From the NCBI GenBank assembly GCA_005223125.1, contig NJBH01000005.1, positions 6,509-70,508 on the forward strand: DNA of 64,000 nt. The letters are read 5' to 3'. The notes below the pieces were generated by a model, which saw only the letters and a program-made list of their open reading frames with translations, did no database searches and was not told where the DNA came from. Positions 1,264 through 32,434 of the stretch are shown here, piece after piece. The first letter of the stretch is position 1. Each line of letters opens with the position of its first letter. Position numbers and translations under genes: made by a program. Source of the DNA: Promethearchaeota archaeon Loki_b32 (lineage in GTDB: Archaea > Asgardarchaeota > Lokiarchaeia > Sigyniarchaeales > SOKP01).

Positions 1264-1836
1264 GTGAGTTATTTAAGGGATAATAAAGTCTGGGAGGAAG
1301 ACGACAATATAAATTGGGATGTTATAGAAATTTCAAAAGTAGACGACAAAATTATTAAGAGGTTAATTGAGAATCTAAAGTTAGATAAATCTGATTTATC
1401 GGAGAACTTTTTTATATCTTTTGAAAGTCTTTTAAAACTAGGAAAAAAGATTGAACCTGTACTTGATTTATTCATTAAAGAAACAACTGAAATTCATAAT
1501 TGTAAAGTAGACACATTCAATTTTATTTTGGATTTTGTGAAAAACAACACTCTAAAGCATGTTTTGGTACCTCAATTATATCATCCAGATTTCATTACTA
1601 GAGCCAGAACTGTATTGAAACTTGAACAGGCTGGTGATTTAAGTTATCTAAATTTTATATTACCATTATTAAATGATCCTGATGACTCAGTTCGTTGGTC
1701 GGTAATACGATTTTTGAATACACACATACATCTTTTAAAAAATCCCTTAGTTTATAAGGAAATAAAATGTTATATTGGAAAAGAATTAAATCCCGTAATT
1801 AGAGAAAAAATGAAGAAATTATTTAAAAAGATATAA
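1264..1836 (+). CDS. Hypothetical protein with HEAT-like repeat
   Basis: 190-aa ORF with GTG start. LLNDPDDSVRWSVIRFL resembles a HEAT/PBS-lyase-type repeat. Nothing else recognised. Confidence 0.5.
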   Translation: MSYLRDNKVWEEDDNINWDVIEISKVDDKIIKRLIENLKLDKSDLSENFFISFESLLKLGKKIEPVLDLFIKETTEIHNCKVDTFNFILDFVKNNTLKHVLVPQLYHPDFITRARTVLKLEQAGDLSYLNFILPLLNDPDDSVRWSVIRFLNTHIHLLKNPLVYKEIKCYIGKELNPVIREKMKKLFKKI

Positions 1837-1864: not shown

Positions 1865-2896
1865 TTATAAAGTGTTAATAAATTTAATAACAAATTCTTT
1901 TAGAATAAAACTCAAATCCTTTTTCCAAGCTAAACCATCTAATTTTCGAGTCTTAATTGTTTTACTAAAAATTGTTATAACATTTAAAACAAGATATTTA
2001 ATATTGCCCAAGGTGTTAGCAAGCTTGAGTTTTTCTGTTAACCCTGAAAAAACATCCTCCGCTAAATTTTGAATTAGTAAATCTTTAAAATCATCAAAAT
2101 CATAGAGAGCTCCAAATTTAAAATAGGAGGATAAAAATTGTGCAACAGCATTTTCCATCTCTTTATCCGAGATTTCTCTATTGCTGATACAAAAAGTTTT
2201 AATCAACCTTTCTATCAATAAACCTTCAAATTTACTTTCTGGAACAATTTTATATGTCGTTGTTTTCTTAAACTTAAGTTCTTTCCTGAGTTTTTCTTCT
2301 TTTCTCGCGAAAAGAACATCCTCGTAATCTTTTACAATAATAATTGACAAGCCTGAGCGGAGTATTATAATATTTGTATTTATTTTTTCCGTTTCATGAT
2401 GATGTGTAGGAACATTATCAATGTGCCTAGCTAAATTGTCTTGAATATTAAGGTTTTTAGACTCATATGGACTGAAAAATATTTCATAAAGTGCACTTAA
2501 ATTATGTTCTCTAATATCCTTTTTAAGCAAATTCCTAATATATTTATCATACTCTAGAAAGAATTTGAAAATACAATCGTCGACAGCCAAACTTAAATTA
2601 TTATTGGCATATTGTGCTCTAATTAGGTACTTTTTGTATTCCAATCGAATTTTTTGAGCTCGAATCCATTCAAAGGCTAAATCTAAAAGTTCTTTTCCAT
2701 CTGCTAGCTTATCCCTAAAATATAATAATGTTTCATAAACGTCATTATAATTAGATCCTATTGATTGGTTAATTAAAAATTTAGCTACAATTTGAGTCGG
2801 TCCCGAAGATCTAAATTGCCCTTTAATCCTATCATAATATCGTAACAGTTTGTCTTTCTCAATTTTGTAAATTTCTTCAATGTTTATCTTTTCCAT
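1865..2896 (-). CDS. Hypothetical protein (mostly helical), second gene of a two-gene unit
   Basis: 343-aa ORF starting 9 nt downstream of 2906..3961 on the same strand. No motif recognised. Confidence 0.55.
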   Translation of the reverse strand: MEKINIEEIYKIEKDKLLRYYDRIKGQFRSSGPTQIVAKFLINQSIGSNYNDVYETLLYFRDKLADGKELLDLAFEWIRAQKIRLEYKKYLIRAQYANNNLSLAVDDCIFKFFLEYDKYIRNLLKKDIREHNLSALYEIFFSPYESKNLNIQDNLARHIDNVPTHHHETEKINTNIIILRSGLSIIIVKDYEDVLFARKEEKLRKELKFKKTTTYKIVPESKFEGLLIERLIKTFCISNREISDKEMENAVAQFLSSYFKFGALYDFDDFKDLLIQNLAEDVFSGLTEKLKLANTLGNIKYLVLNVITIFSKTIKTRKLDGLAWKKDLSFILKEFVIKFINTL

Positions 2897-2905
2897 GTTG
2901 ATATA

Positions 2906-3961
2906 CTACTCATTACTCTGTAATTTATCATTTTTATCAAGGATTAATCCTATTTTATCTAGATCTTCATTTGAAATTGTTCCCCATCTCTCAGAAACGA
3001 AATGTGGATTTATTGAATTAAGAGAGTCTTTTATATCTTTATTTTTATCCAAAATGAGCCTTAAATTTTTTTTAAAATATGATAGTTTTCTAGTTTCTTC
3101 AATTTCGCCATTTTGTTGAACCAGTATAACTCCATAGCTTTTAGAAATTTTATTTTCAAAAATATATTCTTCTAAATATACTACTTTTTTATCTCTATAT
3201 CTTAATCTCATCATCCTAATATTTGGAGATATCCCTTTCTTTTCATAAACCTCTAATGTTTCACTTATAAGGTGTTCGTAATAATCTGGTAAGATTGACA
3301 ATACATAATAAGAAGGGATATACTCCAAGTAAAGCTTTCTTAGAGGATCATCCTTACTAAATGTATAAAGGTTTGAGATTCTAATATTTTCTCCCGTCTT
3401 CCTCTCAATTAATCCAACACAGTAATATTTTTGCCCTTCTTCCCAATAAGCCTTCCTAGAAGCACCAAGAGAATATTCAAGAAGATTAAGTCCCCTTTCT
3501 AACTCACTATTTATCATCCGGTTGAAATCAAATCGACTTCCCGAAAGGTTTTCATTCATAATTTTACTTTGGGTAATGCTTGGATGAATATAATTAGAAA
3601 TTTCATCATAAAGTAATTTCACATCTTCGGTATATGGAGTACTTATTAATGCAAAGAGATTTGAAGCACCATCTTGAGTTTCAATAGAAGAGTTAAGTGT
3701 GAAAAATGATTGAAGAACGTCCACCTCATCTACATTAGCACCACGTAAAGAAAGTGAAGCTTCAATAAACTCAATTTGCCAATTTTTTCCAATACCAGTA
3801 GCAGCTGTTAAAAAAACTGGACCAAGGAATTTATAAGAGAGCATCTTAATATCATTAATCTTCATATCAGTCAAATTATCAGAATATTTAATATTATCAA
3901 ATACTAAATTATCTTCATCCGCGAAGAAGAGGCCGAGGATTATGTTTTCATGACTTCTCAT
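2906..3961 (-). CDS. Hypothetical protein, N-terminal region possibly longin-like
   Basis: 351-aa ORF divergent from GTPase 4232..4765. The first ~120 aa (IILGLFFAD..LVFDNIKY..INDIKMLSYKFLGPVFL..WQIEFIEASLSL..SNLFALIS..VKLLYDEISNYI) show a beta-beta-alpha-beta-beta-beta-alpha hydrophobic pattern. This is a weak inference. Confidence 0.55.
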   Translation of the reverse strand: MRSHENIILGLFFADEDNLVFDNIKYSDNLTDMKINDIKMLSYKFLGPVFLTAATGIGKNWQIEFIEASLSLRGANVDEVDVLQSFFTLNSSIETQDGASNLFALISTPYTEDVKLLYDEISNYIHPSITQSKIMNENLSGSRFDFNRMINSELERGLNLLEYSLGASRKAYWEEGQKYYCVGLIERKTGENIRISNLYTFSKDDPLRKLYLEYIPSYYVLSILPDYYEHLISETLEVYEKKGISPNIRMMRLRYRDKKVVYLEEYIFENKISKSYGVILVQQNGEIEETRKLSYFKKNLRLILDKNKDIKDSLNSINPHFVSERWGTISNEDLDKIGLILDKNDKLQSNE

Positions 3962-4231
3962 GGTTATTTCTAAAAGCTATAGGGTTTTTTTACTCCTAAT
4001 AATTAATAGCAAATAAAGTTTTAAGTTTAAGTATTTCGAAAATAAGGTAATCTAATTAAAAGAATGTTAAGTTCCAGTTTTGTGAAGTATAAAAGAATGT
4101 ATGTACTATAAACTAAAACAAAGAAAATTCATACTATATTTAAAAAGTTGAAATTCATTAAAATATTATTGTAAGGGTATAATAATATAAATACTAAAAT
4201 TGATTTATTTACCTAATTACTTTAAGGTTTA

Positions 4232-4765
4232 ATGACAATGGCTAGCTACGATTTTACATTTAAAATTTTGCTTTTAGGAGACGCAAGTGTAGGTAAAACT
4301 TCTTTCACAAAACGATATTGTTATAATATTTTCAATCCTAGTGAAAGATTGACTATTGGTGTTGATTTTCATGTTAAAACGATCGAATTAAACGACAGGC
4401 GAATTAAATTACAATTATGGGACGTTGGAGGTGAGGAAAGATTCAGATTCCTCTTACCAACATATTGTTTGGGGGCGAATGCCGCATTTTTACTATATGA
4501 TATTACGAGACCTTCTACATTGGATAATATTTCGGAATGGATTACTATTGTCAGGCAGAAAGGTGGCCCTATCCCAATTATGCTTGTTGGTTCTAAATTA
4601 GATCTTGAGAAAACTCAACGACAAGTTCAAAGAGATTATGGAATACAAATCGCTGAAAAAAACGACATGGCTAGTTTTGTCGAAATTTCAGCTAAAGAAA
4701 ATGCTAATGTAGATGATGCCTTTAAAGTTCTTACAGAACTCACATTAGACCGAATGAGTAAATAG
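4232..4765 (+). CDS. Rab/Ras-like small GTPase (atypical G3 and G4)
   Basis: G1 GDASVGKTS, switch I TIGVDF, G3 WDVGGEE, G4 GSKLD, G5 SAKE. 177 aa, no C-terminal Cys lipidation motif. Confidence 0.9.
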   Translation: MTMASYDFTFKILLLGDASVGKTSFTKRYCYNIFNPSERLTIGVDFHVKTIELNDRRIKLQLWDVGGEERFRFLLPTYCLGANAAFLLYDITRPSTLDNISEWITIVRQKGGPIPIMLVGSKLDLEKTQRQVQRDYGIQIAEKNDMASFVEISAKENANVDDAFKVLTELTLDRMSK

Positions 4766-4773
4766 GTGATATA

Positions 4774-5736
4774 ATGGAAGATACCGAATATTTGCCTCTT
4801 AACCAATTGTTCGATTCAATTGGCATCATAGAAAAAGGTATTGAAAGAATGTACCATTATCTCCTATTAAATAAGAGAATAGATAATTTAAAAGAAGTGT
4901 GTGATCAATTCAATCTCTCATTAAAAAGAGGGTATAAAATCTGCTCGGTATTAAGTGATCTAGAACTTGTACAAATTTATGATAGACCAATGAAAATTCA
5001 CATTGCTAATCCAATAATGACTTTGTGGCAAAATTTAATCCAAAAACGAATTGAAGACCTTAGAAATCAGTTCAATGAAAAAAGAGATAAGTGTGAATCT
5101 GCAATTGAAGATTTTACTAGAAATTATAAATTAGATCAGCAAGTAGTTCAAGAACCAGTTGAATTTATCAACTATAGTGTTAGTAATTTTGATGAATCGT
5201 ATCATCAGTTCTTAGCCCAAAGTGAATGTAAAATTGCTATAGGTATCAGATATGATAACCCTTTAATTTCCATGATCCATGAGGATCGTTTCCAAAATAT
5301 CCCTGATGATATGAGAACTTCTATGCGAGCCGGTATGAGTAGGATTAAAGAAAATCTAAGAAGTATAAGTGTGCAAGTTATCTTCAATTCTGAGGTTGCT
5401 AAAGATCTTTTAAGCAGTAATGAATTTAAACTTCTCACTAATCATGTTGAACCATACAATTTGGAGTTTAAAAAATTAGAGATTCATGTTACAGATGAAG
5501 CATTTAGTAATTTCAGTTTAACCGATAATGAACTTATTCAACCTAGTTTTGATCCTACAAACATTCTAATCGGTGCTTACATCTCCCGGAATAAAAACAT
5601 TTACCAAATATTCTACGATAAATTTAATGAGATTTTTGAAAAGGGCATACCAATGAATCGATTTATCACTGAACAAAAAGATATTGGTATTGATTCACTC
5701 TCAGAAACACAATTATTTGTTCTATGTGTAATGTGA
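4774..5736 (+). CDS. TrmB-like winged-helix transcriptional regulator with large C-terminal domain
   Basis: Starts 9 nt after the GTPase stop. The N-terminal ERMYHYLLLNKRIDNLKEVCDQFNLSLKRGYKICSVLSDLELVQIY fits the TrmB-type HTH. A ~220-aa C-terminal domain sits where TrmB has its effector domain. Confidence 0.6.
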   Translation: MEDTEYLPLNQLFDSIGIIEKGIERMYHYLLLNKRIDNLKEVCDQFNLSLKRGYKICSVLSDLELVQIYDRPMKIHIANPIMTLWQNLIQKRIEDLRNQFNEKRDKCESAIEDFTRNYKLDQQVVQEPVEFINYSVSNFDESYHQFLAQSECKIAIGIRYDNPLISMIHEDRFQNIPDDMRTSMRAGMSRIKENLRSISVQVIFNSEVAKDLLSSNEFKLLTNHVEPYNLEFKKLEIHVTDEAFSNFSLTDNELIQPSFDPTNILIGAYISRNKNIYQIFYDKFNEIFEKGIPMNRFITEQKDIGIDSLSETQLFVLCVM

Positions 5737-5778: not shown

Positions 5779-7269
5779 TTATTCTTTTTTCTTTTTTTGC
5801 ATTGCCTTTCTGAATTTTTCAAGCATTTTTCGAGGAGTTACCGTTGGTCTTTCGTATTTTCGTAATTTAGATTTGATTCCAAAAAGATATTTAGCAATAT
5901 CCTTAAGCCTTTCAGTATCGTAGCGCATCATCATTGTGATTGTTTCCATAGCGGGACTCCCACCTCCGTGTAACCCAGCTACTTGCATTAAACCCCCCAA
6001 ATCAGAAACTACCATAGCTTCTATCCCCCGAAAACAACGATAAATGTATTCTGGTTTGACTCTAGGGTTTCTTTTCAAATATTTCATTGCAAGATCTCCC
6101 ACTTCCTCAGAAAAGAAAGAACCTTCAAATGGTAAAGTAGCAATTAATCCTCCAGACAAATCTGCTAAAATTTTATATTCTTCATAGATATTTTCTCCAG
6201 CTAATCTTCTCCCCGCATTTGTAAGAATTTCATCGGGAATCTGAGTACCAGATGGAGATTTCTCTGAATGCCTTGCACTTGATTCTCCTGCCGCAAAAAC
6301 AAGCTCAGCAATTCCTATAATATGGGACAATTTATCTTGAACATGAGAAGCTTTCTCTATTCCATTGTATTCAGCAACTAAGGCAGCAGCAGAAGCTAAA
6401 ATTTCTGATACTGCTGGTTTACATCCAGTATATGTATGACGATGATAGTGAGCAAACATTAGAGCTAAGAATCCAGCGTAAGGAGTTTGTCTAGGGTCTC
6501 CATGACCATTTAGAAATATTCGTTCATTTGGTACAAAAACGTCATCAAAAATAATATATGTTTCAGCATCCCCCATTTGTAATCCTGGAGCATCCATGTG
6601 TTCACTTTTTCTATAATATGCGGGTCTTGTGAGCAATTTGACACCATCCCAATCTCCCGGTAATGCAAATGCTACAGCATAATCTTTATCTTCTGGACCC
6701 ATATACCTGCAAGGAACGACAATAAATTCATCAGCATATGGAGTATTGGTAATATTAATTTTACATCCTCTTACAACGATACCATCATCTCTGGTTTCTA
6801 TAACTCTCAGATATTGGTCTGGATCTTCTTGTTGGTGTGGTCGTTTTAAACGATCTCCTTTAGCATCAGTTTGAGCACAACTAGCTACTATGTCTCGATC
6901 TTGAAAATATTCTAAATATTTTATAAATCTTTTATAGTGGTCCGTTCCGAGAGCTTGGTCCATCTCATAGGTAATAACAGAAAGAGCATTTAATGAATCG
7001 ATACCCATACATCGCTGAATACAACCTCCAACACGATGACATAATAATCGAGTCATTTTTTGTCTTTTTAATAGATCTTCTTTACTTTGATGTATATGAC
7101 AAAAACGATTTATCTTTTTTCCCGTTATATGAGAAGTTACTGTGCATAGATCCTCATATTCTGGGTCGTAAGCACGATCGAACGTCTCTCTAATAATATT
7201 CATCCCTCCCCGAAGACGAGGGTCATCTCTACCAACTTTTTCTTCGCCAATATATACATTTGGCTTCAT
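5779..7269 (-). CDS. abfD: 4-hydroxybutyryl-CoA dehydratase / vinylacetyl-CoA isomerase (HpaB-fold family)
   Basis: Alignable by eye along its length to AbfD. Putative [4Fe-4S] ligand motifs CIQRCMGID and YHRHTYTGCK are present. Family-like N-terminal sequence continues in frame upstream to 7320. Confidence 0.88.
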   Translation of the reverse strand: MKPNVYIGEEKVGRDDPRLRGGMNIIRETFDRAYDPEYEDLCTVTSHITGKKINRFCHIHQSKEDLLKRQKMTRLLCHRVGGCIQRCMGIDSLNALSVITYEMDQALGTDHYKRFIKYLEYFQDRDIVASCAQTDAKGDRLKRPHQQEDPDQYLRVIETRDDGIVVRGCKINITNTPYADEFIVVPCRYMGPEDKDYAVAFALPGDWDGVKLLTRPAYYRKSEHMDAPGLQMGDAETYIIFDDVFVPNERIFLNGHGDPRQTPYAGFLALMFAHYHRHTYTGCKPAVSEILASAAALVAEYNGIEKASHVQDKLSHIIGIAELVFAAGESSARHSEKSPSGTQIPDEILTNAGRRLAGENIYEEYKILADLSGGLIATLPFEGSFFSEEVGDLAMKYLKRNPRVKPEYIYRCFRGIEAMVVSDLGGLMQVAGLHGGGSPAMETITMMMRYDTERLKDIAKYLFGIKSKLRKYERPTVTPRKMLEKFRKAMQKKKKE

Positions 7270-7429: not shown

Positions 7430-9493
7430 TTATGCATTTATTTCAGGAGCTTTCTTAATAAAAATCTCATTTATTAATGATTCAAATATAGGATGATCTT
7501 TTATTTCAATTACTCGATTAGCCTTTAAATATTTGTTCATTGTATCCCGTATAATATCAGAATTTTGTATGCTTTCTACAAATTGTGTTAATTTTTGGTT
7601 AGCTAGATATGTTTGCCCTTTGAATATATAGCAAATTGAGAAAGAACTAACTGATTGCATTAGTATCGTAAATTCACCAAATTTAGCACGATCAAGCCTT
7701 TTGGCAAAAATCTCTCCGCTAAAAGAATCAAATGCTGTTAAAAATCCACTTATAAGATCATTTTTGAAAGACCATTCTTTTGTAAAGGGATTAGAGAATA
7801 ACGGGAATCCACCTCCTCCAATAATTAAAAGCAATATTGGTGTTTCATGAGTTAATTCAGGTGGTTCTATAGCGCGTTTTCCTTGCATTCTATCTATAAC
7901 TCCTTTAAAAGATGCTAATTTTATGCGTTCTGACATGGGTGCATTTTCTTTTTCTAGATTTTTCCATGTACTTAACTGCTGCAATAATGTATCATGTTCG
8001 ACTGAGATTCTAATAGCTAACAAGTTAAGACCATGGAGTTCAGCTATTTGTTGAGATTGTGTTATTAGTTGTTCTGCTTCCTTGATCTGCATTTGAATTA
8101 GAGCCAGTTTTGCTTGTAATAATTTAATTTCTGCTAACCATAAATAAGCATTTTGTTTTTCTGCTATCTTGGAAATTTGAGCGATTAATGGATTTAATTC
8201 ATCCAAAACTTCTATGTTATTAGTAAAAGATAATTCTTCCAAAAAAATTTCACATAAGTTCACAAGCGCTAAGAGATTTAATTGAGGAGTGCTAATTCCT
8301 TCCCCAATTATTTGCTTTAGTAATAATTCTGCTTCTGTTCGATTCCGAATCCGATTACTCTGTTTCAAGACAAGTGCTTTTGTTATTGAATGCACTTGGC
8401 TGAATACTTTACTCTCATACTGATTGGTGAATTGCTCTAACCGCGTCAAATATAATTGTGCTTGTTCAAGAGAATTATTATCTAAACTAGTTAAAATTAA
8501 ATAAAAAAGTGAAGATGACATTCCGTAAACTGAATTAAATTTTTCTGAAAGTGCCATGCTATGTTGAAGATATTCTATAGCTTTATCAAAATCTCCTTTC
8601 ATCCTATAAGTAGCACCGATTCCCATTAAATTTTCTAGGAACTCATTATTATAACCTTCCTTTTCAGCAAGTTTAACTGCTCGGTTATAATAACTTAAAG
8701 TTCTGTCTAATTCACCCATTTCTTTATAGATGGCACCTAGAAGATGCAATATGCTGAATTTTGTAACAATACCAATTTCGTCAATATTTAATCCTTGTCT
8801 ACCAGTTTTTAACGCTCTATCAAAATCCCCTTTCATATAGTGACAAAGTCCAATTAAATTAAGACTTGCTCCAATACCTATTTGATTGTTTAATTCTTTT
8901 TGTATTACCAAACTTTTCATAGCATAACCTAAAGCTTTATCAGGTTCACTCTTAAAAATGTAAATATCCCCCATTTGACAATACATAAGTGCTATTTCGA
9001 GTTTTTCTTTTAAATCTTCTTCTAATGTTAACCATTCTTGAGATAGCTCAATCGCCTTACTGTGTTCAGTTGCATAATGACAAACAATGGATTTTATAAA
9101 TAAAATATCAGCTTTTTGTTTTGAAAATTCTGAGGATGAATCTTTTAAAATAGAATTAATCAATCTTTCAGCTTCTGAAATATATTCTAATGCTTGGTCT
9201 AGTTTTCCGTAAAATATAATATACGCTTTTATAACTAGAGAATCAATTACTTTAGGAATAAGTCCTATTTTTTGACTTAATTGGTAAGCCTTTTCTCCGA
9301 CTTCTACAGCCTTTTTATATTGTTCTTTATAGCAATATATTTTACTTTTTAAAATCAATATTGATAACTGTTCTTTAGTCTCGTTTATTTTCTTCTTCTC
9401 GAGATTTGTAACTATCTTAAGCGCGTCCTCAAATTTAGCTTGATACATTATTTGTTCCGCGTAGGTTAACTCTTTAAGTATTGAATCGGACAA
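7430..9493 (-). CDS. TPR-repeat protein with C-terminal longin-like domain (paralog of 18934..20889)
   Basis: 687 aa, TTG start. There are many TPR-like repeats (..GDFDKAIEYLQHSMAL.., ..GELDRTLSYYNRAVKLAE..). The C-terminal ~140 aa (ILLLIIGGGGFPLFSNPF..DLISGFLTAFDSFSGEIF..FTILMQSVSSFSICYIFKG..) have a bbabbba pattern. Confidence 0.75.
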   Translation of the reverse strand: MSDSILKELTYAEQIMYQAKFEDALKIVTNLEKKKINETKEQLSILILKSKIYCYKEQYKKAVEVGEKAYQLSQKIGLIPKVIDSLVIKAYIIFYGKLDQALEYISEAERLINSILKDSSSEFSKQKADILFIKSIVCHYATEHSKAIELSQEWLTLEEDLKEKLEIALMYCQMGDIYIFKSEPDKALGYAMKSLVIQKELNNQIGIGASLNLIGLCHYMKGDFDRALKTGRQGLNIDEIGIVTKFSILHLLGAIYKEMGELDRTLSYYNRAVKLAEKEGYNNEFLENLMGIGATYRMKGDFDKAIEYLQHSMALSEKFNSVYGMSSSLFYLILTSLDNNSLEQAQLYLTRLEQFTNQYESKVFSQVHSITKALVLKQSNRIRNRTEAELLLKQIIGEGISTPQLNLLALVNLCEIFLEELSFTNNIEVLDELNPLIAQISKIAEKQNAYLWLAEIKLLQAKLALIQMQIKEAEQLITQSQQIAELHGLNLLAIRISVEHDTLLQQLSTWKNLEKENAPMSERIKLASFKGVIDRMQGKRAIEPPELTHETPILLLIIGGGGFPLFSNPFTKEWSFKNDLISGFLTAFDSFSGEIFAKRLDRAKFGEFTILMQSVSSFSICYIFKGQTYLANQKLTQFVESIQNSDIIRDTMNKYLKANRVIEIKDHPIFESLINEIFIKKAPEINA

Positions 9494-12579: not shown

Positions 12580-12729
12580 TCATAAAACTTTTTTTTCTGG
12601 TTTCTCCTGTTGTGCTATCTCTAGTTCCTCAACTTGCTCCTCTTCCATGGGGAGTTCTTCTAAAATTATAAATTCTTCCAATTCAATGCCTTGTTCATGT
12701 TCTTTTTCCCTTTCTAAAAATTGTACCAT
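12580..12729 (-). CDS. Possible small acidic protein (not in ORF track, 49 aa)
   Basis: ATG at 12729. Translation is MVQFLEREKEHEQGIELEEFIILEELPMEEEQVEELEIAQQEKPEKKVL. A TGA stop is followed by 34 more in-frame sense codons. Confidence 0.2.
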   Translation of the reverse strand: MVQFLEREKEHEQGIELEEFIILEELPMEEEQVEELEIAQQEKPEKKVL

Positions 12730-12761
12730 TTCTTATCGCTCTCCCTTTTTATTATTTTTTT

Positions 12762-12962
12762 TTATAAATCCTTTAAACCAAATCCTAAATTTAATGGATG
12801 CATTGAATAATAGCTAAATGTCTGCTTCCATCTTTTCAATTCTCTTTCCTTTTCTATTGAGTCATACTCATCTTTAACAAATGGAATTTGACTGCATTCT
12901 TTTTTCGGTTGTTCTTGTTTTGAATCTTCTTCTTTATAAAATACATAAAAAAATTCTCTCAA
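12762..12962 (-). CDS. Possible small protein
   Basis: 66-aa ORF from the track, co-oriented with the neighbouring small ORFs. No motif. Confidence 0.25.
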   Translation of the reverse strand: MREFFYVFYKEEDSKQEQPKKECSQIPFVKDEYDSIEKERELKRWKQTFSYYSMHPLNLGFGLKDL

Positions 12963-13201
12963 ACCAAGTGCTATATCATTCTTACTCTCTGTCAGATTTA
13001 ATCACCTCTTTTTTCTTTATTTAAACTCCAAATAATTATTAGAATAAGATTACATTTTTAGTTTATCCTATAAAATTGTAATTAGACTCTTAGATAAAAT
13101 TTGGACTTGAAGGGAAAAAAAGACTAACCACTAAAAATATAAGATCTTGAAAATGATATTAGAAACTGGATTCTTTATTTAAAATTTTGCTTAATCAGTT
13201 C

Positions 13202-13759
13202 CTATAATTCTGCTGATAATTCTTTATATTTATGGTACAACTTATCTATTATTTCATTAAAAGCTTCAATAACTCCTTGTTCTGTTTTTGCTGAGGTTAT
13301 ATAATACCCAAGGAAATTTCGTTCATTAACTACTCCTGGAATAATTGAATTATCCAAGCTATTCTCGTCCACTAAATCCACTTTATTTGCAAATAAAACT
13401 ACAGGAATATTGCCACAAAATTGTATGATATTATCATGCCAATTTGCTATATGATTGAAACTCTCCTCACCAAGGTTATTTTCCTCCAAACTATATACAA
13501 TAATAGCACCTCTACTATTCCTAAAAAATGAGGGACGTGCAAAACTGAACTCATCCTGGCCAGCTATGTCCCAGAATAGTAGTCTAATATCATTTCCATC
13601 AATTTCTTTATCATAAACCGAGAATTGGGCTCCTATTGTCTTAATATAATCCTTTTGAAATGATCCCTTTGTAAATTTTTGAATTAGGGACGTTTTTCCT
13701 ACTCTTCCATCCCCTACAATCGTAATTTTAAAATTAAATTTTAACCTTGAGTTCTTCAT
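13202..13759 (-). CDS. Rab/Ras-like small GTPase (paralog of 18261..18815)
   Basis: G1 GDGRVGKTS, TIGAQF, G3 WDIAGQDEF, G4 NKVD, G5 TSAK. 121/185 identical to the paralog by hand alignment. Confidence 0.92.
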   Translation of the reverse strand: MKNSRLKFNFKITIVGDGRVGKTSLIQKFTKGSFQKDYIKTIGAQFSVYDKEIDGNDIRLLFWDIAGQDEFSFARPSFFRNSRGAIIVYSLEENNLGEESFNHIANWHDNIIQFCGNIPVVLFANKVDLVDENSLDNSIIPGVVNERNFLGYYITSAKTEQGVIEAFNEIIDKLYHKYKELSAEL

Positions 13760-14193
13760 TTTACTGTCCTATAGAAATAACACTGGCGAATTGTGTCTAA
13801 ATTAAGATTAGTTTTATATAAATATAAAAGTATGTTTTATTGAAAAAAATAAGAAGAATTGTCAAGATCATTAAAAATATCCAGAGAAAAAGATCGATTT
13901 CTAACAAACTCGAAAAAGATTTTATAATGAAATAGAGAGCCCGTATTGTCATTTTTTCTTAACAACCGAGCTCTCCCTTAATATTTCGCCATCTCTCCCG
14001 TTTTTACCTACGCCCTCTACACTTGAAAATATACTTTCAAAATAGAAAGTATTATAATTTTATACATCACTATTACGTATATAGTTTAGATTGATGAAGT
14101 CTAGATGGAGTCTTGGATCAACAATGGAGCATAAAGTATAAATAGATTTTCACCCATTATTCAATTAAGAGTATTGAACTAGGAGTATTAATT

Positions 14194-16116
14194 GTGGTTA
14201 CTACATGTAATTATCCCCCTGAAGAGATAATAAAACCTATTTTTGAAAGGCCTAACTACGAATTTATTATCCTATGGATTTTAAATAATAATGAAGTATG
14301 CACTTGGGCAAACTTGAAAGTAAAAATTAAACATTCAACATTATCAATCTATTTAAGCCGACTTAAAGATAAAGAATATATTGAAAAAAGTTCATTTAAT
14401 CATTATATTATCACCTCTAAAGGTAAGGACAGATATTATGAACTGTCTTTAGCGAGTAAAAAAAAGCGAAAATTAAGTTATCCTCCTAAAGCTATACGTA
14501 GAAGGAGGAATTATGATCACTGGATTCTTTGGATGGTGTATAATAATAATTATTGCAAATGGTCCGATTTTCTTGAACCACCTCTTTCAATCAATCAATC
14601 TTCTTTATCTAAAAACCTAAATTCATTACAAGATAAAGAATTTGTAAGAAAAGAAGAAAAAGAATATAGAATTACTCGATTAGGAAAAACTGAATATTCA
14701 AATATGCTAAGACTATATGATTTAGACAGACAATCAATCTTAGAGGAAGAAGGTAAACGGATTAAAGAAATTACTAAAAGAACAATTAGCTTCTTTGAAA
14801 AATACAAAATAAAAGATAATGATATTAAATTTCGATTTTTAAATAATAAGTTAAAGCTTCCATATGAAAAAGTTAAATCTACTTTAGATAATGAAGAAGA
14901 ATATGATAAAATTTTACTTTACCTCTCCATAAATCATCCTAATCATTTTCCTAAGTATATATCCCCCGAAGAATGTTCTAAAAAGTACAACATCAATTTG
15001 GTTAAACTTAATTTTATTATTCTTCGAATCGTAGAAGAAAATATCTTTCCAATAAAATTTTTTAAATTAGAATCTGCTGATGGAAAAATTTTTTATTTTC
15101 AAGTGAATGAAAAATTAGAAAGAATGCTAAATGCTATTGTTGAGGATCACATTACAAAATTTTCATATTTGAACAATTTATATGAAGAAACACCTGGGGA
15201 AACATCGCCATTAACAATGGAAAGCACAGTTACAGCAATCTTGGATGAGATTTGCGATAACCTTTTCAATAATGGTTTAAAGGAATCATTAAGTGATTTT
15301 CTTCCAGTATATATTAATTACTTAGCTTATAAAATCGAAAGGGAGAGAAAATTATTAGATACTTATGATAAATTAGAGGGATTAATTTGGCAAGAGATTC
15401 AAATAAAATTTTTTGATTTAGTTGAAGTTGAATATCCAACTGAAACAAAAGAAGCAAACAAAGCTATTCGAGAAATTGATAAAGCTATTAAATTGAATCC
15501 TGACAAGCTTGATTTATACTATTCAAAAAGCAAAATTCTAATTGATCTAGGAGAATACAAAGATGTTTTATCGATTTTAGATAAAATGCTTATAGATTTC
15601 CCTCAAGAAGAGAAAAATATCCAAATAAAAAAAGCATATGTTCAAAAAGAAATGAAAAATATTGAAAAGGGACTAGAAATTATTGCCTCATTACTTAAAA
15701 AATATCCTGACAACAATGATCTTCTTAATTATAAAGCTTGTTGGTTACAGTATCTTAATCGTAAAGAGGAATCTTTAGAAATTAGTCAAAAACTTATAGA
15801 GAATGTACCTGATAATGCTACTTATCATGATACATACGGTGAAATTTTAATGTATTTTAATGAACATGAACATGCCATTGAGGAATTTCTGAAAGCAATT
15901 GAAATAAACAGCGATGATTGGTACGTATACCAAACTTATATAAAATTAGGGATTTGTTATAAGGAACTAGAAAATTATGACTTGGCAACTGAATATCTTC
16001 AAAAAGGAATAGAATCTACAGAAGAGTCATCAGGGGATAACGAGACAAAAAATAAATGGATTGCAATTGCTAATCTATTCGTTGCAGAGATAGAGCAACT
16101 AGAAATAGAATTATGA
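14194..16116 (+). CDS. Double winged-helix (wHTH x2) + C-terminal TPR protein (paralog of 22709..24625)
   Basis: 640 aa, GTG start. Two tandem modules each begin [NS]YPP[EK] and carry wHTH-like segments (IILWILNNNEVCTWANL..; HWILWMVYNNNYCKWSDF..LSINQSSLSKNLNSLQDKEFVRK). The C-terminal part has TPRs (..DWYVYQTYIKLGICYKELENYDLATEYLQKGI). Confidence 0.75.
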   Translation: MVTTCNYPPEEIIKPIFERPNYEFIILWILNNNEVCTWANLKVKIKHSTLSIYLSRLKDKEYIEKSSFNHYIITSKGKDRYYELSLASKKKRKLSYPPKAIRRRRNYDHWILWMVYNNNYCKWSDFLEPPLSINQSSLSKNLNSLQDKEFVRKEEKEYRITRLGKTEYSNMLRLYDLDRQSILEEEGKRIKEITKRTISFFEKYKIKDNDIKFRFLNNKLKLPYEKVKSTLDNEEEYDKILLYLSINHPNHFPKYISPEECSKKYNINLVKLNFIILRIVEENIFPIKFFKLESADGKIFYFQVNEKLERMLNAIVEDHITKFSYLNNLYEETPGETSPLTMESTVTAILDEICDNLFNNGLKESLSDFLPVYINYLAYKIERERKLLDTYDKLEGLIWQEIQIKFFDLVEVEYPTETKEANKAIREIDKAIKLNPDKLDLYYSKSKILIDLGEYKDVLSILDKMLIDFPQEEKNIQIKKAYVQKEMKNIEKGLEIIASLLKKYPDNNDLLNYKACWLQYLNRKEESLEISQKLIENVPDNATYHDTYGEILMYFNEHEHAIEEFLKAIEINSDDWYVYQTYIKLGICYKELENYDLATEYLQKGIESTEESSGDNETKNKWIAIANLFVAEIEQLEIEL

Positions 16117-18260: not shown

Positions 18261-18815
18261 CTATAATTCTGAAGATAATGCTTTATATTTATAATATAAT
18301 TTTTCAATAATTGCATTAAATGCTTCTATTACTCCCTGTCCACTTTTTGCGGAAGTAATATAGTATCCGAGAAAATTATATTCTTTGACATATTTTTGAA
18401 TTTCAAGTTCATTTAAATTATTTTCTTTCACCAAATCAACTTTATTGGCAAACAAAACTACAGGAATATCGCCACAATACTTTTTTAATTCATTATACCA
18501 ATTTTTTATATGTAATAAGCTGTCTTTTCCTAAATCATTTGCTTCAAGGCTACATACAATAATGCACGCTCTACTTTCTTTATAAAATAAAGGATGTAGA
18601 AAATTAAAATCATCTTGACCTGCAATATCCCAAAATATTAAATTAATTACATCCCCATTAATTTCTTTATCATATCTTGAGAATTGGGCACCTATCGTCT
18701 TAACATAATCTTTTTCAAAAGTTCCTATCGTAAATTTTTTTATTAAAGATGTTTTGCCGACCCCTCCATCTCCTATTACGGATATCTTAAATCCAAATTC
18801 CTTAGAATTAGTCAT
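18261..18815 (-). CDS. Rab/Ras-like small GTPase
   Basis: G1 GDGGVGKTS, TIGAQF, G3 WDIAGQDDF, G4 NKVD, G5 TSAK. Lies 118 nt downstream of the TPR/longin gene on the same strand. Confidence 0.92.
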   Translation of the reverse strand: MTNSKEFGFKISVIGDGGVGKTSLIKKFTIGTFEKDYVKTIGAQFSRYDKEINGDVINLIFWDIAGQDDFNFLHPLFYKESRACIIVCSLEANDLGKDSLLHIKNWYNELKKYCGDIPVVLFANKVDLVKENNLNELEIQKYVKEYNFLGYYITSAKSGQGVIEAFNAIIEKLYYKYKALSSEL

Positions 18816-18933: not shown

Positions 18934-20889
18934 TCATAATTCACTAAATACCATACTCTTAGTGATAAAAATTTCTGTTATTAAGGATTCAAGTAAGGGG
19001 ATATCTTTTAATTTAATAGACTGGCTTACTTGAAAAGATTTAAGTAAATTTTGCCAAATATCCTCTTCTTTTTGGATGTGTTCCATAAAATAATTTATCT
19101 TCTGGTGAGCATAATAAGAATCACCTTTAAATATGTAAGAAATAAAAAAAGGTGGAATAGATTTCATAAGAAGAGTATATTCACCAAAGGTTGCTCGGTC
19201 TAGTCCTTCAGAGAACATTTCCCTAATAAAATAATCAATAGTGGTTAAAAAACCGCCAAAAAGATGTGATTCAAGAGATTTTTCCTTTACAAAAGAGTGG
19301 GAGAATAAAGCTGAACCTCCTTCAGTTATTATAAAAATTGAGAAAGGTTCCTCATCTGAAAACTCTGGAGTTTCAATCATTCGTTTTTTTACTATATTCT
19401 CCATTTGCTCGTTCAAACCAGCAAGCTTCCAACGTTCAGATAAAGGTGCTTCTGATTCTTTTAACTTCTCCCACATAGTTATTTGTCTAAGTAGTTCATC
19501 ATGTTCATGTGAAATTTTCATTGCTAATCGTTTAATTCCGTATTTTTCAGCTATCTTTTGGGCTTGAGTTAAAAATCGTCTGGCTGCTTTCATATCAAAA
19601 TTTATTAAAGCTAATTTCGCCTGTAATATGAAAATTCTACAAAAATGAATATATGAATGTGTTTTTTCAGCTATAGTTAATAATTTAGCAATATAGTGAT
19701 TTAATTCATCAAGTACTTCATTACTATTAGTAAAACGATACTCTGAAAGAAGCAATTCACAAAGATGAACAGTTGCTTGTATTGCAAATTGACCCCATAT
19801 AGTTTCTGTGTCTATTATTTTTTTGAATATTTTTTCAGCTTTTGCTTTATCGCGAATTCGCGAACTCCTTTTTAGCATTAAAGCTGTACATAATTTGTAG
19901 AGTAAAACAATTGTTCCATCTTTTTTTTGATTATACAAATTTTCTAGTCGATTGTAATATTTCTGAGCAAGTTCATTATCACCTATTTCAAGAGCCACTT
20001 CAACTAAATTAGAAAGAGGAAAATCTAATGCCAAAGATAGCTTTTCATGGTATAATAAGCATTCTTCGAAATATTCCAAAGCAAGGTTGAAATTACTAAG
20101 TTGATAATAGTTTCCACCTATATTATTAAGTACCAATGCAAAAAAATAATTGTTTTTGATTGCTCTAAATATCGCCAAACTTTTCATGTTATATTTCAAG
20201 CCAATATCTATCTCGCCTAGAGTTGAATGTAACACCCCTAAATACAATTGACCGAAAGCAATCCAGAAATGATTAAATTTAATTTGTTTTGCTATCGATA
20301 ATGCTTTCTTGGCATACTCCCCACCAAGTTCATAGTAACTTTTTCCTTGATACATAAGTCGTGCCTTTAAAAAAGTAGCCCAAACAATTTCAAATGTATT
20401 ACCAAGCTTATTGTGTGAATCTAAGACCCAATTTAAACAATTTTCTGCTAAATCTTGATTATTTAACTCCAGATTAATCCATCCTTTTAAAACTCTTAGA
20501 CGAATTTTTCTCTGAAAAAAAACACTTTTAGATATATCAGAAATAAGTCCTAATAACACTTCAGCAATTTCAATTTTTTGATAAGCTTCCTTAAATTTAT
20601 CACTTAGACCTAATCCGATGATAATAAAAAATAACCCATCAAACGATTGAAGATTATCATTAAGATCTTGACCTTCTTTAAATAATTGTTCACCAAACTC
20701 AATAAGTTCATCGCATTTGTTCTGGTGCATTAGAATTAAGCCCTTAAGAAGCTGAAAATAAACTTTTTGCTGAGAATTAAGCCCTTCAAATTGTACTCTA
20801 TCGTTTAATATCTCAAGAGCCTCATCAAGTTTACCCGCATCAAAAAGTTCTTCCGCTCTTGTTATTTGATTTAGCTCTGAATGAGACAT
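18934..20889 (-). CDS. TPR-repeat protein with C-terminal longin-like domain
   Basis: The track ORF runs to 20964. The internal Met at 20889 (MSHSELNQ..) matches the paralog N-termini, so it is the preferred start. C-terminal block: FSIFIITEGGSALFSHSF..HLFGGFLTTIDYFIREMF..YTLLMKSIPPFFISYIFKG. Confidence 0.75.
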   Translation of the reverse strand: MSHSELNQITRAEELFDAGKLDEALEILNDRVQFEGLNSQQKVYFQLLKGLILMHQNKCDELIEFGEQLFKEGQDLNDNLQSFDGLFFIIIGLGLSDKFKEAYQKIEIAEVLLGLISDISKSVFFQRKIRLRVLKGWINLELNNQDLAENCLNWVLDSHNKLGNTFEIVWATFLKARLMYQGKSYYELGGEYAKKALSIAKQIKFNHFWIAFGQLYLGVLHSTLGEIDIGLKYNMKSLAIFRAIKNNYFFALVLNNIGGNYYQLSNFNLALEYFEECLLYHEKLSLALDFPLSNLVEVALEIGDNELAQKYYNRLENLYNQKKDGTIVLLYKLCTALMLKRSSRIRDKAKAEKIFKKIIDTETIWGQFAIQATVHLCELLLSEYRFTNSNEVLDELNHYIAKLLTIAEKTHSYIHFCRIFILQAKLALINFDMKAARRFLTQAQKIAEKYGIKRLAMKISHEHDELLRQITMWEKLKESEAPLSERWKLAGLNEQMENIVKKRMIETPEFSDEEPFSIFIITEGGSALFSHSFVKEKSLESHLFGGFLTTIDYFIREMFSEGLDRATFGEYTLLMKSIPPFFISYIFKGDSYYAHQKINYFMEHIQKEEDIWQNLLKSFQVSQSIKLKDIPLLESLITEIFITKSMVFSEL

Positions 20890-21066
20890 AATTTTAATTA
20901 ATTTGGATGCAACCTTATGAATAAATAAGCTAATTATAATTTTAAATCTAGCGTTTAAGACCATTAAAAAAAAGATTTTCCATTTCTTAATTATTGAGTC
21001 GATGAATTAGAAAGGGACTAAAAAAGAAAAAAAAAAATTAATTAGAAATTTTTTCATTTATTGCGT

Positions 21067-31288: not shown

Positions 31289-32434
31289 ATGCAAGAAGTA
31301 GGTGATTCTTTAGTTTCAGTTCTTGTTGTAGATAGAGAGGGATTGGTTGTTGATATATTAACAATAGATTCTGATAAATCGGATGAAAAAAAGTTTATTG
31401 GAGCTTTTAGTTCTTTAGTTGAATTGGTACTAAAAAAATTGACTCAAGATTTTGATCTTGGAACTTTTGGTGCCGGGACATTTGATACAGATAAATACCG
31501 ATTTATTTTTTGTGAGTCTGGATCTAGCCATGTTTTAGTTTCCATTCTCAATCATACGACGTTAGTTGATGACGTATTTCCATATACTTATTTAACTGCT
31601 GACAAAGTAGCGAGGATTATAGATGGAGAATTACCAGTTAGCCCTGTGATTCCTAAAATAAAAAGAGATACTGAACTTGAAAAAGTAAAGAGAAAAATGG
31701 AATACTATCAAAGCAAACCTCATTCACAAGAATATGTTTATAAACTTTCTCTAATCGGAGATGGAGGCGTTGGTAAAACTAGCATGGCACAAAGATACGT
31801 TCATGGAATATTTAAAGCAGATTACAAAGCAACAATTGGTACATATATTTCTAAGAAAGAATGCAAATTTAAAGAATTGAATACTTTTGTAAGATTTATG
31901 ATATGGGATTTAGCAGGACAAAGTCAATTTGAACGATTATGGCCAGATTATTTGACAGATTCCCGTGCAGGAATCATAGTTTTTGATATAACAAACCAAG
32001 AATCATTTGACCATGTAAAGATGTGGTATGATATTATCAAACGAGTCGCATTACCTAATATTATATTAATTCTTGTAGGAAATAAAGTGGATCTAAATAC
32101 ATCCAGAATTATTTCTACAGAACAAGCTTTAGAATTAGCTAAGGAATTAGGAATCTATTATATGGAGACCTCAACAAAAACAAATGAAAATATTGATAAC
32201 GTGTTTAAGTGGATTGCACTTCAAATCATTAATTTGAATATCGAAGAAGTAAAAGATACATTATTTGATAAACAAATCGAAGAGGGCTCAAAATTTGTTA
32301 TTTCAAGCCCACAATTAACAATTTTGAATCAATATTTCGCTAAGCAACTAGACTTCTGTATAGGAAAAAGTGATACTAAAGAAATCATTAAATACTTAGA
32401 CATTTTAAAAGCAATTGGAAAAAATAAATTATAA
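31289..32434 (+). CDS. Roadblock/longin-like domain fused N-terminally to a Rab/Ras-like GTPase
   Basis: Residues 1-~115 (LVSVLVVDREGLVVDILT..FIGAFSSLVELVLKKL..YRFIFCESGSSHVLVSILN..) look LC7/roadblock-like. The GTPase part has G1 GDGGVGKTS, TIGTYI, G3 WDLAGQSQF, G4 NKVD, G5 TSTK. A ~70-aa tail follows. Confidence 0.85.
   Translation: MQEVGDSLVSVLVVDREGLVVDILTIDSDKSDEKKFIGAFSSLVELVLKKLTQDFDLGTFGAGTFDTDKYRFIFCESGSSHVLVSILNHTTLVDDVFPYTYLTADKVARIIDGELPVSPVIPKIKRDTELEKVKRKMEYYQSKPHSQEYVYKLSLIGDGGVGKTSMAQRYVHGIFKADYKATIGTYISKKECKFKELNTFVRFMIWDLAGQSQFERLWPDYLTDSRAGIIVFDITNQESFDHVKMWYDIIKRVALPNIILILVGNKVDLNTSRIISTEQALELAKELGIYYMETSTKTNENIDNVFKWIALQIINLNIEEVKDTLFDKQIEEGSKFVISSPQLTILNQYFAKQLDFCIGKSDTKEIIKYLDILKAIGKNKL

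Follow-up and report, generated by a model that had tools for sequence, protein, structure and literature searches.

The 64-kb window of DNA analyzed here, meaning the whole stretch under study, came from Promethearchaeota archaeon Loki_b32 (Lokiarchaeia, Asgard) and had a G+C content of approximately 30%. Four of its genes were arranged in two pairs around a divergent, AT-rich spacer of 270 nucleotides (nt; 3962–4231). On the plus strand, the gene for a Rab-like small GTPase (4232–4765, 177 amino acids [aa]) was followed after 8 nt by that for a 320-aa winged-helix protein, designated W (4774–5736), which was 100% identical to a Loki_b32 protein; on the minus strand, the gene for a 351-aa protein, U1 (2906–3961), was followed after 9 nt by that for a 343-aa protein, U2 (1865–2896). 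These positions in the open reading frame list, together with the two short gaps and the AT-rich spacer, exactly reproduced those given in an earlier note on this DNA. Because each of the four proteins had hundreds of conserved homologues, these are real genes; all of the homologues came from metagenome-assembled genomes of Asgard archaea in the Lokiarchaeia/Promethearchaeota group. W, U1, and U2 represent three protein families without a Pfam model, and no published description of these families or of a GTPase–W operon was found in the literature searched. What is new is the invariant GTPase–W operon, the replacement of Gln by Glu in switch II, and the pairing of a predicted double-longin protein with a helical partner; the kinds of component are already known. 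We tentatively read the four genes as a small-GTPase signalling system of Lokiarchaeia, divided into two modules of two genes each that are conserved and separable; the system would work by the mechanism proposed below, a reading to which we give a little less than an even chance.

Sequence features of the GTPase and its coupling to W

The product of 4232–4765, which had been called a GTPase in the earlier note, matched Pfam Ras with an E-value of 1.3e-45 (155 bits against a cut-off of 21.6), and its closest solved structures in the PDB were Rab43, Rab30, Rab8A, Rab3, and Rab11, at approximately 1e-39. The motifs G1 (GDASVGKT), G2 (TIGVDF), G3 (DVGGEE), G4 (GSKLD), and G5 (SAK) were all present, and with these and the Pfam match the protein is a Rab-like member of the Ras superfamily. 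In switch II, Glu occupied the position of the catalytic Gln (DVGGEE rather than DxxGQ), and G4 read GSKLD against the canonical NKxD, with Ser for Asn. Among 63 unique orthologues, G3 was always D[VIL]GGE[EQ] and G4 always [SA]KxD, and six distant W-linked GTPases (44–54% identity) had DxGGE and retained NKxD. Since DxGGE was invariant in both sets, Glu in switch II is, by sequence comparison, a hallmark of the W-linked GTPase family, and this family-wide Gln-to-Glu replacement predicts an unusual hydrolysis mechanism. The C-terminus (...TLDRMSK) had no Cys and so lacked the prenylation motif of the eukaryotic Rab family; terminal cysteines are reportedly missing from Asgard small GTPases (PMC10933270). 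Three of the distant W-linked GTPases (L055:124–660, L069:1190–1750, and L073:151–684) ended in -NNCF, -KKCF, and -KKCY, respectively, with Cys as the penultimate residue.

Like the Asgard Rab-like GTPases described previously (Thor-Rab and the MK-D1 set; Tran et al. 2024, PMC10933270), the enzyme is a single-domain Ras-superfamily GTPase that is nearest to eukaryotic Rabs and lacks C-terminal prenylation cysteines. It differs from them by Glu for the catalytic Gln throughout the W-linked family and by [SA]KxD for NKxD in the orthologous group of the window GTPase. It differs also from the general MK-D1 case in the same paper, in that its gene and that of its partner form a strictly conserved operon.

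To examine this operon, we combined two sets of loci, 53 from genomes retrieved with U1 and 80 from metagenomes retrieved with distant relatives of W (scanned with a sub-alignment of a diverse W alignment), and counted pairing for each unique W gene that had 600 nt or more of sequence upstream. A Ras-family GTPase gene lay immediately upstream of W on the same strand in all 76 informative loci, including those in which W had only 29–43% identity to the window protein (L054, L055, L064, L069, L073, and L125). The physical linkage of a GTPase to a winged-helix protein, claimed earlier for the window, thus extended to every informative locus. Across shared loci, identity was 74–96% for the GTPase and 50–90% for W. 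The arrangement suggested that the two genes form one operon and are co-transcribed across the 8-nt gap. The outermost W relatives (Helarchaeota, 18% identity, a winged helix-turn-helix with DUF6879) did not adjoin a GTPase gene; this distribution fits a type of regulator that at first stood alone and afterwards, within Lokiarchaeia, became linked to a GTPase.

A small GTPase adjoining a winged-helix protein has a precedent in group 3 MglA (Wuichet & Sogaard-Andersen 2014, PMC4316618), in which, as here, the genes for a small Ras-superfamily GTPase and a predicted winged-helix DNA-binding protein are linked in the genome, and the likeness suggests GTPase-controlled transcription. The GTPase of the window is Rab-like rather than an MglA, and no MglB is present in the GTPase–W operon. 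Whereas the group 3 MglA GTPase sits beside a protein with receiver-like and winged-helix domains, W has no receiver-like domain and consists of an N-terminal winged helix, a long helix, and an unassigned C-terminal domain.

Winged helix of W and its relation to known families

In the primary sequence of W, the winged helix occupied residues ~13–75, the long helix ~80–125, and the C-terminal domain of unassigned fold ~125–320. The recognition helix contained the motif LKRGYKICSVL, and the C-terminal domain was conserved as PVEF...FSNF...QPSFDP...G. W had 522 homologues, all from Asgard archaea. An exhaustive profile search of 1.84 billion representatives gave just 53 clusters at 50% identity, which marks W as a small family confined to one lineage as far as sequence databases reveal.

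When the N-terminal profile of W (82 residues) was compared with the PDB, the top match was E2F8 (E = 2.8e-6), with IclR at 0.05 and E2F4 at 0.11. Both winged helices of E2F8 aligned on the W motif KRxYKIxSVLxxLxL. The recognition-helix motif [KR]RxY[KD]xxxVLxxLxL[IV] is shared with the E2F/DP winged helices, E2F8 being the top solved match of W. W differs from E2F/DP in that the single-domain alignments reached only ~14 bits each, Pfam E2F_TDP stayed below its cut-off, and the rest of W is unrelated; in place of the E2F DNA-contact motif RRxYD, W reads KRGYK, with K51, R52, Y54, and K55 invariant or nearly so. The C-terminal profile of W retrieved nothing from the PDB sequences. In the Pfam searches, distant W members gave sub-threshold N-terminal matches to E2F_TDP (E = 5e-5 to 0.04), the top score for PF02319 among W members being 23.3 bits against a cut-off of 25.7 (P0409). 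Sub-threshold matches to TrmB, E2F_TDP, and HTH_Mga fell at one site in 8 of 10 distant members, and the C-termini of distant members matched DUF6879 (one member above the cut-off) and DUF7436. These results supported the presence in W of a winged helix with a conserved recognition helix; DNA binding itself is a prediction.

The earlier note had described the winged helix as TrmB-type. The winged helix was borne out by the E2F8 match, and the assignment to TrmB was not. W resembles the archaeal regulators of the TrmB family in its N-terminal winged helix, long helix, C-terminal alpha/beta-type domain, and length of ~320 aa, and distant W members matched PF01978 at their N-termini below threshold (E = 0.0015–0.035; 14–19 bits against a cut-off of 25.6), as did 4 of 47 close members at E-values of at least 0.056. 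No W member reached the Pfam threshold, however, and the window protein matched no Pfam or NCBIfam family; no Pfam match to the TrmB C-terminal family occurred in close or distant members, and W profiles did not match TrmB or TrmBL2 chains in the PDB at E ≤ 10. Membership of the TrmB family was not established on these grounds. We judge it very improbable that W controls the neighbouring HpaB-like and amidohydrolase genes as a common sugar or metabolite regulator of the TrmB family, with the GTPase as a mere passenger, even though one Joint Genome Institute annotation names a homologue "sugar-specific transcriptional regulator TrmB" and in most loci the HpaB-like gene runs convergently to W. 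A GTPase with family-specific motif changes that is coupled to W in every informative locus is unlike a passenger. To our knowledge, no TrmB coupled to a GTPase has been described.

A rather better alternative, although still improbable, is that W is a protein–protein module, acting as an effector, guanine nucleotide exchange factor (GEF), GTPase-activating protein (GAP), or localization factor of the GTPase rather than as a transcription factor. Its winged helix would then bind protein, as in the ESCRT-II, PCI, and DEP types, and its helix would dimerize as in GEFs of the Sec2/Rabin8 type. The strict coupling to the GTPase agrees with this, as does a degree of conservation unusual for a transcription factor (identity above 70% over the 120 best of the 522 homologues). 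The N-terminal profile also touched PCI, an ESCRT-III-binding winged helix, and the CheF adaptor at E = 0.06–0.09, and weak matches to DOCK DHR-2 lobe C recurred on the long helix (19 of 47 members, best E = 0.0087); we regarded the latter as spurious, as they were far below threshold and on a low-complexity helical segment. Against a protein–protein module, the KRxYKxxxVL motif resembles the DNA-contacting RRxYD helix of E2F/DP, E2F8 is the top solved match, and the most distant W relatives are stand-alone winged helix-turn-helix proteins. A transcription factor thus remains our preferred reading of W.

Conserved blocks in the divergent intergenic region

Alignment of the spacer from 29 orthologous loci with MAFFT identified four blocks of at least 90% identity: 4015–4045 on the U1 side (AAAGTTTTAAGTTTAAGTATTTCGAAAATAA), 4096–4108, 4135–4146, and 4176–4207 on the GTPase side (GGTATAATAATATAAATAC...AAATTGATTTA), the last of which was TATA-like and lay 25–55 nt upstream of the GTPase start. 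The k-mer TTTAAGTTTA occurred in 26 of the 29 loci, compared with a maximum of 6 after shuffling. The GTPase-proximal block was kept whether U1 or a HEAT-repeat gene lay upstream, being present in the HEAT-type loci L080 and L092; the GTPase–W pair therefore appears to have its own promoter-like element. The blocks may represent TATA or B recognition elements (BRE) or operators. A search of the regions upstream of the GTPase genes for a shared W operator turned up neither a motif present in every group nor an obvious palindrome. At 4058–4069 and 4091–4102 the sequence AAAAGAATGT(T/A) formed a direct repeat with a spacing of 33 nt, and only its second copy overlapped a conserved block (4096–4108); it was rejected as a shared W operator, since it was not generally conserved in other loci. 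A scan for sigma-70 promoters and terminators was uninformative, because the models were bacterial and the host is archaeal.

Predicted structures of U1 and U2

The AlphaFold2 model of U1, built from 65 sequences (predicted local distance difference test [pLDDT], 85.3; predicted template modelling score [pTM], 0.86), contained two domains, residues 8–164 and 179–317, each of the order β-β-α-β-β-β-α-α, followed by a short helical tail; the arrangement of the two domains was modelled with confidence, as judged from the pTM. The longin topology is defined as a five-stranded antiparallel sheet in the order β-β-α-β-β-β-α-α without an N-terminal helix (PMC10933270, section 11), and the model of U1 showed it twice. 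The longin-like N-terminus that had been suspected from a hydrophobic pattern thus reappeared in the predicted structure, accompanied by a second domain. Domain 2 could also be read in the roadblock order α-β-β-α-β-β-β if helix 146–164 was counted in.

A Foldseek search of U1 against the PDB returned nothing at E < 1e-3. The match of highest probability was the longin domain of the Lokiarchaeota Roadblock-Longin protein 8yqg (probability, 0.63–0.72; template modelling [TM] score, 0.39–0.44), and chains of GATOR1 and of the FLCN complex were also among the matches. U1 is accordingly described here as predicted to hold two longin/roadblock-type domains, with weak support from the fold search. 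The lowest Foldseek E-values for the whole chain (1e-3 to 1e-2) belonged to tandem PAS proteins (LOV-PAS and FixL), at a TM score of 0.13, and LuxR-type ligand-binding domains were also matched, so that a tandem PAS/GAF-like small-molecule sensor had to be weighed. We consider such a sensor quite unlikely. The PAS alignments had TM scores of 0.12–0.16 with a root-mean-square deviation above 24 Å, and the top Foldseek probabilities went to the Lokiarchaeal longin domain. Moreover, in each U1 domain a single long helix connects strand 2 to strand 3 and a pair of long helices forms the C-terminus, as in longin domains, whereas PAS has four short ones, and the 65 members gave no Pfam PAS or GAF signal.

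U1 had 209 homologues and U2 had 269, the 120 best of each being at or above about 51–54% identity. Neither protein gave a Pfam match (65 alignment members each), an NCBIfam match, or a sequence relative in the PDB; Robl_LC7 in particular was not matched by any of the 65 U1 members. The N-terminal and C-terminal halves of U1 had no homology detectable by hhalign, so there was no evidence for a recent internal duplication, and by the same method U1 and U2 were not homologous to each other.

U2 was modelled as all helices (pLDDT, 70.7; pTM, 0.45) and matched no fold in the PDB. Its conserved core comprised residues 1–195, with the invariant sequence EWIRAQKIRLEYKKYL...DDC..., and residues 226–343 formed a variable helical C-terminal domain; short U2 paralogues of ~200 aa consisted of residues 1–195 only. 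The most conserved segment, 74–200, was the part modelled with low confidence, as expected of a region that folds on a partner. In 63 of 64 loci, the U2 gene came directly after that for U1. Two or three U1–U2 pairs were arrayed in tandem in L002 (6249–11971), L020, L023, and L028, and in the flanking copies of the arrays U2 was cut to its N-terminal ~195 residues, which suggests local duplication and sub-functionalization of the pair. In L048, a gene at 12678–13868 on the minus strand, whose product by eye resembles a transposase of the IS200/IS605 OrfB (TnpB) type, adjoined a U1–U2 paralogue with a 430-aa U2; this hints at how U1–U2 may have moved between contexts.

The uDENN/DENN-like core for which the earlier note had advised testing U1 and U2 was detected by neither Pfam, AlphaFold2, nor Foldseek, and the DENN reading was rejected. 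None of the 65 U1 or 65 U2 members matched a Pfam DENN family, domain 2 of U1 repeats the longin/roadblock order and forms no cDENN, and U2 had no fold match. A GAP longin was likewise rejected. Longin GAP subunits of the FLCN, SMCR8, and NPRL2 type carry an arginine finger and, in the loop joining strand 1 to strand 2, a GP motif (PMC12290439). In U1 the loop between strands 8–14 and 20–24 reads DEDN, with no GP motif; the sole invariant G-P of U1 (G47-P48) sits in helix 41–53, and the invariant arginines are R156, R169, R187, and R301. A heterodimer of two subunits with three longin domains each was also rejected, U1 having two and its partner U2 being all-alpha.

We compared U1 with the MglB dimer, the Ragulator/Rag C-terminal domains, the longin subunits of TRAPP, the tri-longin domain (TLD) RabGEFs of the Mon1-Ccz1 type, the FLCN-FNIP, GATOR1, and C9orf72-SMCR8 complexes, and 8yqg. 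In its model, U1 shares with these platforms the five-stranded sheet and the ββαβββα(α) order, and its two domains are packed together as in the dimeric platforms; in addition, the U1 gene adjoins that of a Rab-like GTPase, and paralogues adjoin genes for GTPases and Roadblock/LC7 proteins. Unlike them, U1 has no sequence relationship to any of the group, and its partner is all-helical rather than a second longin protein. It differs from the TLD GEFs in having two domains per chain rather than three, and from the GAP longins in the missing GP motif; a DENN core is absent as well.

Genomic contexts of U1–U2 and their relation to the GTPase

The four-gene order was followed through 63 orthologous GTPase loci (62 fetched loci and the window). 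Beyond U2 in the window lay a gene for a small HEAT-repeat protein (1264–1836, plus strand, 190 aa; Pfam HEAT_2 at 1.2e-5, just under the cut-off), preceded by an amidohydrolase gene (212–982), and on the other side a gene for an HpaB-family enzyme (5779–7269, minus strand) followed W. The order [W←GTPase][U1→U2][←HEAT←amidohydrolase] was kept from 93% down to 49% U1 identity. The gene upstream of the GTPase was a divergent U1 in 31 of the 63 loci and a co-directional gene for a TIM-barrel of ~270 aa in 16, most of which had U1–U2 just beyond; the GTPase–W and U1–U2 modules were adjacent in about two-thirds of the loci. In the more distantly related of the orthologous loci (L002, L019, L020, L022, L031, L037, and L039), the gene for the TIM-barrel protein (~272 aa, xylose-isomerase-like, with Pfam AP_endonuc_2 in L002) separated U1 from the GTPase; it lay directly upstream of the GTPase on the same strand, in most cases with gaps of 16–120 nt, and may join the GTPase–W transcription unit in these loci.

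Several observations weighed against a functional tie between U1–U2 and the GTPase. In 14 of the 63 loci a co-directional HEAT gene, which was present in nearly all orthologous loci, stood directly before the GTPase and U1–U2 was absent. Because of these loci, the link between the GTPase and U1–U2 is not obligatory, and U1–U2 looks like an inverted insertion between HEAT and GTPase–W. The conservation of the four-gene neighbourhood, which the earlier note had proposed to check, therefore held in its wide span across Lokiarchaeia and failed in its completeness. Since the unrelated metabolic neighbours, amidohydrolase and HpaB-like, were conserved equally well, the synteny may be partly passive. 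Furthermore, the largest group of U1–U2 paralogues had only metabolic neighbours (aldo/keto reductase, nitroreductase, SepF-like, and thiolase genes), and neither U1 nor U2 carried a Pfam GTPase-regulator signature. All of this agrees with a Lokiarchaeia-specific U1–U2 complex that is unrelated to the GTPase and was passively inherited after its insertion. We hold this alternative to be unlikely overall and yet the most serious of those considered here. Against it, the divergent arrangement persisted over the whole range of U1 identity, the predicted fold of U1 is one that forms GTPase-binding platforms in all characterized cases, and paralogues occurred in three independent contexts with GTPases, Roadblock/LC7, or a longin-looking protein.

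In the first of these contexts, L042, genes for a Rab-like GTPase, a 281-aa protein, U1, and U2 followed one another on one strand, and this U1–U2 paralogue was flanked by two Gtr1/RagA-type GTPases and a domain–GTPase fusion. Within the GTPase cluster (L042:5653–13381), two proteins were Rab-like (184 and 171 aa) and the two of the Gtr1/RagA type measured 310 and 322 aa, with Pfam Gtr1_RagA E-values of 1e-24 and 2e-18; in the fusion protein, of 349 aa, an alpha/beta domain at the N-terminus is joined to the GTPase. In five loci a Roadblock/LC7 gene, with a true Robl_LC7 match, lay directly upstream of U1–U2 paralogues. In L044, a 355-aa protein was encoded two genes upstream of a U1–U2 paralogue (8285–9352, minus strand); it starts MKRIIIVHWNRQVGPEPVIQYPP, which has the look of a strand, a G-P loop, and a strand and resembles the GP motif of the FLCN/SMCR8 type (PMC12290439). 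The paralogue contexts are better evidence for a link between U1–U2 and GTPases than the orthologous synteny. Asgard archaea encode Rab-, Rag-, and Arf-like GTPases by the dozen, together with numerous longin and roadblock proteins; because such genes are abundant in Asgard genomes, the evidence from these contexts is moderate rather than strong.

Proposed mechanism and significance

In the mechanism we propose, the first module is an autonomous GTPase–W operon with its own conserved promoter-like block. W would read the nucleotide state of the GTPase by direct binding and would then alter its DNA binding and hence transcription, giving a switch of one GTPase and one transcription factor; the long predicted helix of W may mediate dimerization. 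The second module would be a heteromeric complex of U1 and U2, in which the two U1 domains pair within one chain into a pseudo-dimer platform comparable to the roadblock/longin dimers of MglB, Ragulator, and TRAPP, and in which the most conserved part of U2 probably folds only on U1. By analogy with longin/roadblock platforms, U1–U2 would most likely bind a small GTPase as a GEF, a GAP, or a scaffold, and the neighbouring GTPase is its first candidate client. The analysis shows the gene structures, the family of the GTPase with its altered motifs, the strict pairing in each module, the predicted folds, and the narrow taxonomic range, whereas we infer all physical interactions, the binding of W to DNA, and whatever catalytic role U1–U2 may have. 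Since the comparison with each precedent, group 3 MglA and the longin/roadblock platforms, fell short in at least one defining feature or gave no clear outcome, GTPase–W and U1–U2 are said here to work like these systems rather than to be members of them.

Matching Asgard GTPases to their regulators by genome layout has been difficult, as such genes do not, as a rule, lie in operons (Tran et al. 2024, PMC10933270), and the locus offers a rare and testable match of an Asgard GTPase to candidate partners. The GTPase and its invariant partner W are a directly testable pair, and U1, with its obligate partner, is predicted to represent a double-longin architecture that is new. Should W relay the signal of the GTPase to transcription, a Rab-like GTPase would act in gene regulation and not in membrane traffic, and such a role would bear on the origin of the eukaryotic GTPase repertoire. 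A bolder version, which we regard as a long shot, is that U1–U2, as a single-chain double-longin platform with a helical subunit, is a hitherto unrecognized archaeal multi-longin regulator of the Rab-like GTPase, and that an E2F-like winged-helix transcription factor directly reads the output of this GTPase. If that were true, one Lokiarchaeial locus would contain a complete circuit of regulator, GTPase, and transcription, and U1–U2 would foreshadow either the multi-longin Rab/Arf regulators of eukaryotes or adaptor-type assemblies of longin and solenoid. If the functions of the modules are unrelated, the analysis still usefully annotates four gene families that are conserved in Lokiarchaeia.

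Other GTPase and TPR genes in the window

Three more Ras-family GTPases were encoded in the window, at 13202–13759 (minus strand), 18261–18815 (minus strand), and 31289–32434 (plus strand), with Pfam Ras E-values of 1e-37 to 4e-47; the last is a protein of 381 aa in which an N-terminal extension of ~150 aa precedes the GTPase domain. Divergent from the GTPase gene at 13202–13759 was that for a 640-aa protein (14194–16116, plus strand) with two N-terminal winged-helix domains (HTH_45 and MarR-like) followed by TPR repeats; this is probably another of the loci at which the earlier note had seen a GTPase beside a winged-helix protein. Two TPR proteins of ~680 aa were encoded on the minus strand at 7430–9493, in the flank of the locus beyond the HpaB-family gene, and at 18934–20964. 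Each had a C-terminal region of ~150 aa without a Pfam match (e.g., ILLLIIGGGGFPLFSNPF) that by eye had a roadblock/longin-type alpha/beta look. The gene at 18934–20964 lay directly upstream of a GTPase gene, and that at 7430–9493 was syntenic in L008 and L011.

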